A stretch of 64,000 nucleotides of DNA, from positions 22,704 to 86,703 of the forward strand of contig JBFWUF010000008.1 of assembly GCA_050247435.1 (NCBI GenBank), in the 5' to 3' direction. The position numbers and the translations under genes are program-made. Of the stretch, positions 26,252 to 29,133 are shown one piece after another. Numbering within the stretch: the stretch's first letter is position 1; every line of letters starts with the position of its first letter. A model generated the notes under the pieces. The model did not search any database. It was not told where the DNA came from and worked only from the letters and a program-made list of their open reading frames with translations. This DNA comes from Blastocatellales bacterium (GTDB lineage Bacteria; Acidobacteriota; Blastocatellia; RBC074).

Positions 26252-27115
26252 TCAAAATGGGTACGCCACAATTTCAACCGTCTCCGTCGTCCAATGCGAT
26301 GCTCGCGTTCGACCGGCGTGACGATCCTGGCGACGTTTGATCCATTGCATCCCCTGTTGCAAGGCGGCGAAGAACCCGTCGCGATTGCTCGCAAAACTGT
26401 GGTTGTTCGCGTGAATCAATAAGAAACGTTTCGGACGTTTCGTCGTCACGAACAAGGCTTCCGCCTCGTCGTTTGGGATAAATTGGTCACTGCTCGATTG
26501 AATGACGAAGACCGGCAGCGGCGCGATCTTCGGCAGGTAATCGTCGCTTTGAAAGGTCGGTTCATTGGGCAGTTTTCCGGTCAGGCAGGTGAAGTTGTCC
26601 ACCCAGCGCCAACCGAGAATGTTCGTTTTGCCCAGCGAAACGGCGATCAGGCCGTCGTAGCCCGCCTTGTTCGCATCCGCCGCCGCCAGCGCCGCCAGTC
26701 CCGCGCCAGTTGACCATCCGGCCAGCGTGATCTTCTCGTCGAAACCGCCTGTAACGATACCGGCAAGCTGGTGGAAATCGGTCATCACATCAGCCGCCGT
26801 CAGATGCGTTTTGCCGGTGAAGCTCGACAGGTAATGTCTGGTATCGAGCGCGTACAGGTCGTAGCCCATCCCGGCCAGCTTTTCGGCGATCGTAATGGCA
26901 AAGCCCCGATGCCCGCCGTCGCCCGGCGCGAAGAGTACTTTGTGATGCGCGCCCACGCCTGCGCCAGGATAGAAATAAAGCTTCTGCCGCTGACCGCGAA
27001 TCGCGATTGTATTTCGACCGGCTTTGATCTCCGGCGTCGCAGTTTGCGCGAAGGCTGGCGGCAGACACAGCGTTGTAAGCAGCAAAATCAGCGCAGGCGA
27101 AAATAATCTTTTCAT
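26252..27115 (-). CDS. AcvB/VirJ-family alpha/beta hydrolase (putative lysyl-phosphatidylglycerol hydrolase)
   Basis: Signal peptide. Paralogous to 28354-29133: both share VLFAPGDGG(W/H)RG and GWSEGAG/GWSTGAG (the nucleophile elbow GxSxG). ATG at 27115 overlaps the stop of the upstream small ORF (ATGA). Confidence 0.7.
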   Translation of the reverse strand: MKRLFSPALILLLTTLCLPPAFAQTATPEIKAGRNTIAIRGQRQKLYFYPGAGVGAHHKVLFAPGDGGHRGFAITIAEKLAGMGYDLYALDTRHYLSSFTGKTHLTAADVMTDFHQLAGIVTGGFDEKITLAGWSTGAGLAALAAADANKAGYDGLIAVSLGKTNILGWRWVDNFTCLTGKLPNEPTFQSDDYLPKIAPLPVFVIQSSSDQFIPNDEAEALFVTTKRPKRFLLIHANNHSFASNRDGFFAALQQGMQWIKRRQDRHAGRTRASHWTTETVEIVAYPF

Positions 27116-27315
27116 ATTGGTTTCCGGCGACAGAGCCATAACAGAGCGGCTCCGAGCGCGATTGCGATGGATGACGCTCCCACAACCGAACCGATAAAAT
27201 TCTCTGCGAAGAACACGCGTTCGATCAGCGAAAAGAACAACACGGCCGCGCCCAGCATCAGGCAAAAGACGCCCAGCGTCAGGACAATGAATCTGGAGTT
27301 TTCATTCAACCGCAT
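27112..27315 (-). CDS. small two-TM membrane protein (67 aa)
   Basis: ATG at 27315 with a GGGGAG RBS. Two hydrophobic helices. Its stop overlaps the start of the downstream VirJ-like gene. Confidence 0.4.
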   Translation of the reverse strand: MRLNENSRFIVLTLGVFCLMLGAAVLFFSLIERVFFAENFIGSVVGASSIAIALGAALLWLCRRKPI

Positions 27316-27349
27316 GCTCGTCTCCCCTTCAGCCGCATTTGCTCCGCGC

Positions 27350-28366
27350 TCACCTGCGCGCAAGGTCCCGCACCTCCCGGCGAAGCTTCATCAGGCTGGT
27401 CCCGCTCGCGCTTATCGCTGCAAACCCTAACAGGAGCAGCGGCAAGGTCAGCAGCACGAAGACCACCAGGGAAAAGCTTGTCGCGACGGCCTTGTCAACG
27501 CTGAAAAGCGTCAACCCAATGACAGTGAAAAACTGGTATGAACCGACATTGGCCGGCGCGTTCGGAATCGCCGTGCCCAGATGCACGATCAGAAAAACCG
27601 CCACACCGATCCAGAAACTCAGGCGCAAGCCGCATCCCAACATCACCAGCCAGAAGGCCATCGCCTGAAATGCCAGCAACAGCAAAGATGCGCCCAGCGA
27701 CAGATAAAATGCGCGCGTGCGCGCCATCCCCTGCAAAACGCCGGACAATCGTTCCAGCAGCGACGAAACGAAGCGCAGCGGCCCGCCGGGTTTCGCTTTC
27801 GGCGGACTCAGAACGAAGTAGATTGCTACACCGGCGGCGGCGATCACGCCCACGCCCAGGACATCCGCCGCGCGCAGCAAATCTTTCGGCAGCGGCACGA
27901 ACATCGCCGTCAGACCAATGCCTGCCGCCAGCCACACGCCGTCGAGCAATCGCTCGACCACCATCGAAGGGATGACCGCGACGAATTTCACCGCCGTCCA
28001 GCGCGACACCAGCCAGGCGCGCACCAGTTCGCCCACACGCATCGGGAGGATTTCGTTCACGAACAATCCCGCGTAAATCGCCTGCGTCGCGCGCAGCGTG
28101 GACACTTCGCCGAGCGGTTTGAGCAACAACCGCCAGCGCACGCCCTGGCAGACGTAACTCATCACGTCGCAGACCACCGCCAGTGCGATCCACCGCCAGT
28201 CGAGGCTCGCCACCAGCGCACGCAGGCGGCCAAGCTCGAAATCATGCAACACCCAGACAAGCCCTGCGGTTGCGAGCAGATAGCCGAGCGCGGGCTTCAT
28301 CCATTGCATCGAAGGCTTGGCCGAATGCGCAGCGACTTCATCAAATGTGGCGGTTACTTCATCCAT
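27350..28366 (-). CDS. flippase-like lysylphosphatidylglycerol-synthase TM-domain protein (UPF0104/LPG_synthase_TM)
   Basis: 338 aa with ~8 TM helices and the pattern typical of the MprF N-terminal flippase domain. No synthase domain. Confidence 0.7.
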   Translation of the reverse strand: MDEVTATFDEVAAHSAKPSMQWMKPALGYLLATAGLVWVLHDFELGRLRALVASLDWRWIALAVVCDVMSYVCQGVRWRLLLKPLGEVSTLRATQAIYAGLFVNEILPMRVGELVRAWLVSRWTAVKFVAVIPSMVVERLLDGVWLAAGIGLTAMFVPLPKDLLRAADVLGVGVIAAAGVAIYFVLSPPKAKPGGPLRFVSSLLERLSGVLQGMARTRAFYLSLGASLLLLAFQAMAFWLVMLGCGLRLSFWIGVAVFLIVHLGTAIPNAPANVGSYQFFTVIGLTLFSVDKAVATSFSLVVFVLLTLPLLLLGFAAISASGTSLMKLRREVRDLARR

Positions 28367-29133
28367 TGCAATCCCTCCCGCAGTTGCCGGTAGAACTCAT
28401 TGACGTTGCCGTCGAAACGATGATTGTTCGCCTGGATTACCGAGATGCGTTTTGGCTCGCGCGCCGCCGTCGCCAGCAGCTTTGCTTCTTCAAAGGGCAC
28501 GAATTCATCCTTGCTTGAATGAAGCATCAGATATGGGAGCGGCGCGATCTTTGCCATATAGCCGCTCGCGCGAAACGCCGGTTCATTCGGCTTGGATTTG
28601 GTGACGTAAGTGAGATTGTCCTTCCATGTCCATCCCAGTACGTTCTCATCGCCGAGGCCGAAGGTGATAAGGCCGTTGAAGGTTTGTTTATTCTCGGCGC
28701 CAGCGGCGGCTAACACGCCCAACCCCGCGCCTTCCGACCAACCGATTAGCGTCACTCGCTCGTTTGCGCCTTTGATCATCCACTCGGCAATCTGGCGGAA
28801 ATCGTTCATCACATCGCTTTCCTTGATCCCCGCGCCACCCGTGAAGCCGTTCAGATAAGTCCTGGTGTCGAGGCCGTACACGTCATAGCCCCACCCAGCC
28901 ATCTGTTGCGCGATGGTGATCGCCCAGCCGCGCCAGCCACCGTCGCCCGGCGCAAACAAAACCTTGCGATTCAGCTTCGCGCCGGTCGCCGGGTAGTAAT
29001 AAATCTCCTGCTTCTGGCCACGCACCGCGACCACGTTTCTGCCGGACGTTTGCGCGAATGACGAACCCGACAGCGACAGCGCCAGGACAAGCGCGCCGAT
29101 ACTCAAACCTACTTTGCGGGTAAATAATTGCAC
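28354..29133 (-). CDS. AcvB/VirJ-family alpha/beta hydrolase, paralog 2
   Basis: GTG start at 29133 with a GGAGGA RBS. Signal peptide. GWSEGAG nucleophile elbow. Overlaps the flippase-like gene start by 13 nt. Confidence 0.7.
   Translation of the reverse strand: MQLFTRKVGLSIGALVLALSLSGSSFAQTSGRNVVAVRGQKQEIYYYPATGAKLNRKVLFAPGDGGWRGWAITIAQQMAGWGYDVYGLDTRTYLNGFTGGAGIKESDVMNDFRQIAEWMIKGANERVTLIGWSEGAGLGVLAAAGAENKQTFNGLITFGLGDENVLGWTWKDNLTYVTKSKPNEPAFRASGYMAKIAPLPYLMLHSSKDEFVPFEEAKLLATAAREPKRISVIQANNHRFDGNVNEFYRQLREGLQWMK

Follow-up and report, generated by a model that had tools for sequence, protein, structure and literature searches.

A probable disassembled MprF-type system for aminoacylating membrane lipids in a Blastocatellales bacterium and related Acidobacteriota

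MprF is a drug-resistance and virulence factor whose flippase mechanism is debated, both as to whether it acts as a flippase or a scramblase and as to the roles of its subdomains 1 and 2. A genomic region of a Blastocatellales bacterium, a soil acidobacterium, raises the question of whether the activities combined in MprF can be distributed over separate proteins. We analyzed a stretch of 64,000 nucleotides (nt) of this genome (JBFWUF010000008.1, 22,704-86,703), which we call the window and whose coordinates are counted from its position 1. It encodes a short MprF (synth1) and, separately, two VirJ-like hydrolases (hyd1 and hyd2), a flippase-like membrane protein, and a small protein with two predicted transmembrane (TM) helices. 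The initial annotation of this DNA had proposed that these genes form a split system for the synthesis, flipping, and hydrolysis of aminoacyl-phosphatidylglycerol (aminoacyl-PG). Domain assignments, the way in which two of the proteins tile MprF, gene order in relatives, and gene fusions all support this proposal, and in our view the region probably encodes an MprF-type system for membrane-lipid aminoacylation in disassembled form. The lipid product, the amino-acid specificity, and the flipping and hydrolysis steps are features that we infer from sequence.

The evidence begins with synth1, which scored 268 bits against Pfam LPG_synthase_C (PF09924, or DUF2156; cut-off 27.5). Along the 841-position model of bifunctional MprF (NCBIfam NF033480), synth1 aligned to positions 321-837 with 447 bits, and the flippase-like protein aligned to positions 19-293 with 20 bits. 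Together, the two proteins tile one complete MprF model with no overlap; the whole-protein cut-off of 600 bits is reached by neither. Residues 23-536 of synth1 align to approximately residues 347-842 of the MprF cryo-electron microscopy structures 7f47 and 6lvf. The best structure match was the lysyl-phosphatidylglycerol synthase (LysPGS) 4v36 (220 bits, E 4e-64); structures of alanyl-phosphatidylglycerol synthases (AlaPGS) scored 155-181 bits, a difference that does not discriminate for the amino acid.

These alignments place the break between the two proteins at a domain boundary. In Rhizobium tropici MprF (RtMprF), subdomain 1 (TM1-8) comprises residues 24-325 and subdomain 2 (TM9-14) residues 334-530 (PMC8131360). 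TM subdomain 2 is present in synth1, directly N-terminal to the catalytic domain, and subdomain 1 (PF03706) resides on a separate polypeptide. This confirms the annotation of a short MprF, with a TM region and a synthase domain, 7 kb away from the other genes, and answers in the negative the question of whether the short MprF keeps a flippase region, as its alignment is confined to the later part of the model. For the modular MprF of Staphylococcus aureus, residues 1-320 and 328-840 supplied as separate halves are functional in trans (PMC4324311). Because those halves work in trans at the same boundary, the natural break falls at an experimentally permissive site. A recent fission of a canonical mprF is disfavored, since the gene order is the reverse of that in fused MprF and since subdomain 1, unlike the synthase half, is very diverged; independent recruitment or a pre-fusion state would fit. 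The reversed order and the diverged subdomain 1 also bear on the suggestion that MprF arose by fusion of two proteins (Ernst et al., 2015, PMC4324311).

The flippase-like protein scored 139 bits against Pfam LPG_synthase_TM (PF03706; cut-off 33.4). An AlphaFold2 (AF2) model built on 33 homologues had a predicted local distance difference test score (pLDDT) of 81 and showed an eight-TM fold with two re-entrant pairs (3a/3b and 7a/7b), with helices matching TM1, 2, 3a/3b, 4-6, 7a/7b, and 8. When this model was compared with the PDB using Foldseek, the significant matches were six MprF structures only (template modeling score 0.54-0.61, probability 1.0), the rest being noise.

The gene order in relatives provides a second line of evidence. 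Three hyd1 homologues were traced to their contigs, and two of the three showed LPG_synthase_C, VirJ-like, and LPG_synthase_TM genes with overlapping boundaries. A scan of one genome per species, with genes identified by open reading frame (ORF) calling and phmmer, yielded 52 loci (loci in relatives are given L numbers here). Almost all belong to Acidobacteriota, among them Blastocatellia, Pyrinomonadaceae, Bryobacterales, Terriglobia, and Vicinamibacteria. The genes lie adjacent in the order synthase, hydrolase, flippase at 36 of the 52 loci. Three loci, as well as the window, have an insertion between synthase and hydrolase; one has the order hydrolase, flippase, small gene, synthase; five have a hydrolase followed by a synthase with no flippase; and a few hydrolases stand alone. 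At 34 of the 36 loci with the adjacent order, the hydrolase stop codon lies inside the flippase frame, with overlaps that are typically 25, 22, 13, or 4 nt. Most of the related loci that we examined, almost all of them acidobacterial, share the split arrangement. At those 36 loci the flippase-like gene comes immediately after a short MprF and a hydrolase of the hyd1 type, and so is no free-floating member of UPF0104.

In some Terriglobia and Acidobacteriota metagenome-assembled genomes (MAGs) (L047-L050 and L052), a VirJ-like hydrolase is followed by a 554-amino acid (aa) LPG_synthase_C protein, and no flippase-like gene lies within 10 kb. The closest operon relatives of the window, L007, L008, L010, and L012, match hyd1 with 65-82% identity and have the same synteny. 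They were deposited as "uncultured Heliobacteriaceae / Heliomicrobium" (Bacillota), labels that are probably wrong because these loci resemble Blastocatellales MAGs.

The third component is the hydrolase. Against Pfam VirJ (PF06057; cut-off 22), hyd1 scored 27.9 bits and hyd2, which is 48% identical to hyd1 (E 1e-84) and hence paralogous as annotated, scored 17.5 bits, below the cut-off if taken alone. Generic alpha/beta-hydrolase models in Pfam do no worse than VirJ on either protein, with Hydrolase_4 reaching 34 bits for hyd1 and 32.6 bits for hyd2. A protein identical to hyd1 carries the NCBI name AcvB/VirJ family Lys-PG hydrolase, and among solved structures AcvB (9xhm, E 8e-6) was the one that a profile of 37 family sequences matched best. 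The Asp of the GDGG motif, which is present in both hyd1 (GDGGW) and hyd2 (GDGGH), is in register with AcvB Asp271 (chain residue 251), which recognizes the alpha-amino group, and the Ser of GWSEG is in register with Ser336 of the AcvB GYSFG motif. The catalytic His (AcvB His433) lines up with that of Ti-plasmid VirJ in a joint alignment. Ser133, Asp209, and His238 are invariant in 37 hyd1 homologues, and hyd2 retains the Ser, Asp, and His positions of this triad. The AF2 model of hyd1 (pLDDT 88) has an alpha/beta-hydrolase fold. With AcvB as best match and the Asp271, Ser336, and His positions aligned, the hydrolases are best placed with the AcvB/VirJ family rather than with an unrelated one, although the relationship is distant. 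The initial annotation had also listed LpiA among the hydrolases; LpiA is a synthase, and the hydrolases are AcvB, AtvA, and VirJ.

Among 1.84 billion cluster representatives, family profile A1 matched 128 at E <= 1e-30 and 490 at E <= 1e-10. Both examined hydrolases that lack a synthase or flippase neighbor (L003:10001-10783 and L017:2349-3086) carry GVGGW, with loss of the AcvB-Asp271 equivalent, and 20 of the top 120 family matches carry GVGGW or GIGGW. An extra, more VirJ-like hydrolase is encoded upstream of the synthase at L018:3881-4771. Another family member, P0325 (537 aa), has two stretches that match the hydrolase-family profile, with Pfam VirJ matching in the C-terminal part only, a layout that may recall the two-domain AcvB.

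In several relatives, synthase and hydrolase form a single ORF. These fusions include L040:8105-10723 (872 aa), on a complete Pyrinomonadaceae chromosome, and L044:8210-10714 (834 aa), together with P0327 (831 aa), P0334 (889 aa), and the fragment P0321. A hydrophobic TM linker, in place of the signal peptide, joins the two parts, such that the fusion proteins would hold opposing activities on opposite sides of the membrane. An apparent hydrolase-flippase fusion at L053 was rejected as a frameshifted or error-ridden assembly.

Fusion to the synthase in several lineages is odd for a purely antagonistic enzyme. Together with the obligatory coupling of the hydrolase to synthase and flippase, in frames that overlap at most loci, it favors an alternative in which aminoacyl-PG is a membrane donor and the hydrolase-fold enzymes act mainly as transferases to an envelope acceptor, such as a lipid, glycan, or peptidoglycan, with hydrolysis as a side reaction. 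Such a role was proposed for an unrelated esterase, PesT, encoded beside an alanyl-diacylglycerol synthase (AlaDAGS) (PMC6103681). However, all characterized members of the nearest family (AcvB, VirJ, and PA0919) are hydrolases, each encoded with a synthase, and the cluster contains no conserved acceptor-specific gene. Sequence does not tell a transferase from a hydrolase. We regard a mainly transferase role as improbable.

The same data bear on a second alternative, that a generic PplT/UPF0104 translocator and generic secreted esterases have nothing to do with aminoacyl lipids and that the short MprF is nearby by coincidence. Standalone PplT proteins are indeed widespread and often unconnected with MprF synthases (bioRxiv 10.1101/2022.03.11.483950), the Pfam scores of the hydrolases are no better for VirJ than for generic models, and fold searches are non-specific. 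Chance proximity would nonetheless have to account for the conserved order with its overlapping junctions, for the synthase-hydrolase fusions, for the exact fit of the two MprF halves, and for a second DUF2156 synthase that ends the ancestral operon (described below). Moreover, the present data place the hydrolase and flippase clade mostly near a DUF2156 gene. We consider this alternative very unlikely and favor a disassembled MprF-type system.

Why should such a system contain two hydrolases? The initial annotation described them as duplicates around one flippase. Their paralogy stands, but a simple duplication does not. A neighbor-joining tree placed hyd2 apart from hyd1, in a group with the second hydrolases of L010 and L012. 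All 35 members of the hyd2 clade carry GWSTGAG and 25 of the 35 carry GDGGH, whereas the hyd1-type motifs are GWSEGAG and GDGGW. These signatures and the tree indicate that hyd2 is not a recent duplicate and that it is a member of an older clade with its own active-site signature. In hyd1 a nearly invariant Glu follows the catalytic Ser (position Ser+1), and hyd2 has Thr there. Because the Ser+1 residue of AcvB lines the aminoacyl pocket (PMC13197417), a difference in specificity between hyd1 and hyd2 is plausible.

In relatives, hyd2 is followed by a second synthase gene, synth2. L064 contains an intact six-gene operon in the order synth1, hyd1, flippase, small gene, hyd2, synth2, and L062 has the same order with synth1 displaced by inserted genes. 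Intact synth2 genes are present in L008, L012, L061, L062, and L064; they directly follow hyd2 in L062 and L064, and in L061 synth2 lies 3.3 kb further on. The encoded proteins (478-508 aa) consist of a YflT-like N terminus, a glycine-rich hydrophobic stretch, and an LPG_synthase_C domain (155-169 bits). In the window, tblastn detected two pieces of this gene immediately after hyd2. Residues 4-20 of L008 synth2 match 26245-26195 with 76% identity, and residues 464-494 match 26190-26098 with 81% identity (E 3.7e-11). Both pieces were confirmed by frame translations and by alignment to five intact synth2 proteins. The remnant joins the first ~17 codons to the last ~34 in a different frame, corresponding to an internal deletion of ~440 codons. 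At this locus at least, the window therefore keeps hyd2 but has lost the synthase that was probably its partner, leaving one intact synthase in the region.

Because relatives carry two synthases and two hydrolases, the earlier idea of two lipid substrates is plausible for the lineage. For this organism, hyd2 could instead be redundant with hyd1 on the same lipid, or a decaying leftover, which would leave no second substrate. The window retains nothing of a second synthase beyond the deletion remnant, the two genes also occur apart elsewhere (hyd2 without synth2 within 7-10 kb in L010 and L063, and synth2 without hyd2 in L008), and hyd2 ends in an unconserved 28-aa C-terminal tail. Decay, however, is not apparent in the rest of the gene, which has an intact frame, a signal-peptide-like N terminus, the complete triad, and an ATGA translational coupling to the small gene. 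Redundancy is also at odds with the replacements that mark the clade, Thr for Glu at the pocket-lining Ser+1 position in all 35 members and His for Trp after GDGG in 25, and a copy of synth2 could exist outside the 64-kb window. We consider redundancy or decay of hyd2 possible, if doubtful.

The tight coupling of synthase, flippase, and hydrolase, including single polypeptides with synthase and hydrolase across the membrane, also led us to a more speculative proposal. In an export-and-transfer pathway, which we think unlikely, aminoacyl-PG would be a carrier lipid on which an activated amino acid crosses the membrane. From there, the VirJ-like enzyme might pass the amino acid to another acceptor in the envelope or deliberately set it free, as in a buffering of the periplasm in acid soils, a role to which we give equally little credence. 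It is similarly a long shot that the two synthase and hydrolase pairs of the ancestral operon handled two cargoes.

The coordinates of the features are given in Table 1. All four minus-strand genes that had been annotated in the hydrolase-flippase cluster are present. The earlier claim that their junctions overlap or are coupled throughout holds for the flippase-like gene, whose ATG start gives a 13-nt overlap with the hyd1 stop, and for hyd2, which overlaps the small-gene stop through ATGA. It does not hold for the junction between the flippase-like and small genes, where there is a 34-nt gap and an overlap arises only with an unsupported TTG at 27363. The small-gene ATG at 27315 is backed by the N-terminal sequence M[RN]LNENSRF, which is kept in L008, L009, L012, and L033, the loci in which this gene also directly follows the flippase gene. 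Unnamed genes encoding 67-78 aa occupy the same position in L061, L062, and L064. Although the small protein has no Pfam or NCBIfam match, it is probably an accessory membrane subunit. The hyd1 gene starts with GTG, with AGGAGG 7 nt upstream. The N termini of hyd1 and hyd2, read by eye from the sequence, are signal-peptide-like and end in AFA-Q or SFA-Q.

Table 1. Features of the split MprF-type region, in window coordinates
Feature	Position	Strand	Basis or remarks
hyd1: secreted single-domain VirJ-like alpha/beta hydrolase, 259 aa	28354-29133	-	motifs GDGGW, GWSEGAG, SSKDEF, NNHRF
Flippase-like protein (PplT / MprF subdomain 1), 338 aa	27350-28366	-	Pfam LPG_synthase_TM, fold
Small protein, 67 aa, two predicted TM helices	27112-27315	-	conserved after flippase gene
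hyd2: second secreted VirJ-like hydrolase, 287 aa	26252-27115	-	motifs GDGGH, GWSTGAG, SSSDQF, NNHSF
synth2 deletion remnant (pseudogene of a second DUF2156 aminoacyl-lipid synthase)	26095-26245	-	tblastn, frame translations, alignment
synth1: flippase-less MprF, TM subdomain 2 + catalytic domain	36406-38085 (likely start 38055, 549 aa)	-	Pfam, NCBIfam
Sigma-54-like promoter TGGCATTTCGCTTGCT, upstream of synth1	38093-38108	-	one mismatch to TGGCAC-N5-TTGCW
Sigma-54-like promoter TGGCACGCAAGTTACT, ~50 nt upstream of hyd1	29185-29200	-	-12 GC reads AC
Hybrid histidine kinase + NtrC-type sigma-54 activator	38271-40595 (kinase), 40596-41972 (activator)	+	divergent from synth1; Pfam

Given that synth1 lies outside the operon in the window, how might the two halves be expressed together? 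Seven genes separate synth1 from hyd1: those for a PP2C phosphatase, a DUF4136 protein, a SpoIIE/DUF4118 phosphatase, a BON protein, and a rhomboid protein, and two with no Pfam match. The rhomboid gene is on the plus strand, and because of this intervening gene on the opposite strand, co-transcription of synth1 and hyd1 is impossible in the window. A similar insertion, with PP2C and SpoIIE genes, occupies this place in L062, and in L008 and L063 an HtrA-like protease is encoded there instead. As an observation on its content, the 7-kb insertion (29272-36217) carries envelope and signaling genes.

Both transcription units are preceded by sigma-54-like elements. Since one of these elements and a ribosome-binding site lie before 38055, synth1 likely starts at the ATG at that position and not at the TTG at 38085. 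Elements like the synth1 promoter occur upstream of synth1 in L007, L008, L010, and L014, and TGGCACG elements are found at similar spacing before hyd1 in L007, L009, and L033, with the L033 copy perfect. These two putative sites are supported by position and conservation only. Pfam confirmed that a hybrid kinase and a sigma-54 activator adjoin the short MprF, as annotated. Homologous kinase and activator pairs occur within 10 kb of the cluster at L005, L006, L008, L011, L012, L016, L021, L023, L040, L055, L061, and L064, representing at least ten distinct loci. We infer that this adjacent pair may place both halves of the system under common sigma-54 control. An OmpR-type pair (23796-25926) was set aside as a regulator, as it is not a conserved neighbor and adjoins a resistance-nodulation-division (RND) efflux operon.

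Other neighboring genes were also noted. Directly downstream of hyd2 are the response regulator and histidine kinase of this OmpR-type pair, followed by a dual-specificity phosphatase (22987-23628). RND efflux systems flank the region on both sides (OEP-HlyD-AcrB, 16744-22450; HlyD-AcrB, 43493-47928). The neighborhood as a whole looks devoted to envelope stress.

Several observations weigh against a disassembled MprF-type system. For the hydrolases, the VirJ alignment of hyd1 spans model positions 4-79 only (76 of 191), and the identity of hyd1 and hyd2 to VirJ and AcvB is about 17%. AcvB Asp340 (Ser+4), which AcvB homologues conserve and which is needed for activity, is replaced in both proteins by a Gly that is nearly invariant in the family. 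For the flippase-like protein, neither a phmmer search nor a HMMER search with a 29-sequence profile found an MprF match among PDB sequences, and an hhalign comparison of the profile with Sinorhizobium medicae LpiA was insignificant; its link to MprF comes from Pfam and the fold search only. The arginine motif of TM8 in MprF, YRxxY / R-Y-P, is absent throughout the 33 homologues, which show no Y[RK]xxY. In place of G-P-G-F-D/E, this family has P-A-N-V-G-S-Y-Q with Gln278 invariant, and if the correspondence made by eye is right, this Gln takes the position of the gate Glu or Asp of MprF. By this alignment, both partners of the RtMprF Glu280-Arg304 gate appear to be replaced. As for expression, with the synthase outside the operon, coupling in the window rests on relatives and putative promoters. 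The -12 element before hyd1 is imperfect, and matches to the sigma-54 pattern across the window are at chance level (34, with 37 expected). Lastly, we found no paper on aminoacyl-PG in Acidobacteria.

Our favored model for the system would proceed as follows. synth1, through its tRNA-dependent DUF2156 domain and TM subdomain 2, would make aminoacyl-PG on the cytoplasmic leaflet. By docking on subdomain 2 of synth1, the flippase-like protein would complete the path for translocation and bring the lipid into the outer leaflet, and the small two-TM protein may assist. In the periplasm, the secreted VirJ-like serine hydrolases would strip off the aminoacyl group and set the steady-state level of the lipid, like AcvB, VirJ, and PA0919. 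In the ancestral six-gene operon, a further aminoacyl lipid was probably the substrate of the second pair of synthase and hydrolase. In this genome, insertions have moved synth1 7 kb away and an internal deletion has destroyed synth2, leaving hyd2 without its probable partner. The two transcription units that remain appear to depend on sigma-54, with the adjacent kinase and activator in control.

This lineage, which naturally keeps subdomain 1, subdomain 2 with the synthase, and the hydrolase on separate proteins, is a ready-made system for dissection. With it, one can learn what translocation requires, how the two halves recognize one another, and the reason for co-expressing synthesis with removal. 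The model also predicts aminoacylated lipids in Acidobacteriota, a dominant soil phylum, and control of these lipids by sigma-54 and a two-component system.

How does this arrangement compare with known systems? In Proteobacteria, VirJ/AcvB-type hydrolases are encoded with synthases (PMC6103681, PMC13197417, PMC13135905). Like AcvB, VirJ, AtvA, and PA0919, the hydrolases described here are secreted serine hydrolases encoded with a synthase, which is adjacent at 36 of 52 loci and 7 kb away in the window, and the single-domain Ti-plasmid VirJ (255 aa) is similar to hyd1 and hyd2 in size. However, AcvB is described as having a Ser-His dyad (PMC13197417), whereas the hyd family has a third triad residue, the invariant Asp209. 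The hyd family also differs from AcvB and VirJ in its loops (an LGWxW insert), in having no N-terminal pseudo-hydrolase domain, and in sometimes being fused to the synthase.

With bifunctional MprF, or aminoacyl-phosphatidylglycerol synthase (aaPGS), represented by S. aureus MprF, R. tropici LpiA, and Pseudomonas aeruginosa PA0920, the system shares the DUF2156 / LPG_synthase_C domain, TM subdomain 2, and the fold of subdomain 1. In contrast to bifunctional MprF, subdomain 1 is a separate protein in the window, encoded downstream of the synthase and not N-terminal to it, with a hydrolase gene in between. It is also highly diverged, without the YRxxY Arg and with Gln for the gate Glu or Asp. 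Flippase-less forms of MprF are themselves known, and Clostridium perfringens MprF1 is an example. Ernst et al. (2015, PMC4324311) described a class of short MprFs with 4-8 TM segments and without the flippase. No dedicated flippase partner was pointed out for those proteins, whereas the window lineage supplies subdomain 1 in the same operon. In a literature search that did not extend to the main survey of aaPGS gene contexts, we found no description of an operon that pairs a subdomain-1-less synthase with a separate subdomain 1 and a hydrolase, nor of synthase-hydrolase fusions. Each part is known separately, and the combined arrangement is apparently not yet described.

The flippase-like protein is most readily compared with standalone PplT/UPF0104 proteins. 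Escherichia coli YbhN, encoded next to clsB, is likewise a free PF03706 protein beside lipid-metabolism genes, and the study that describes it (bioRxiv 10.1101/2022.03.11.483950) reports neither this operon nor a VirJ association. In contrast to standalone PplT, the partner in the window is an MprF-type synthase that lacks exactly this domain, and a specific substrate can therefore be proposed for the flippase-like protein.

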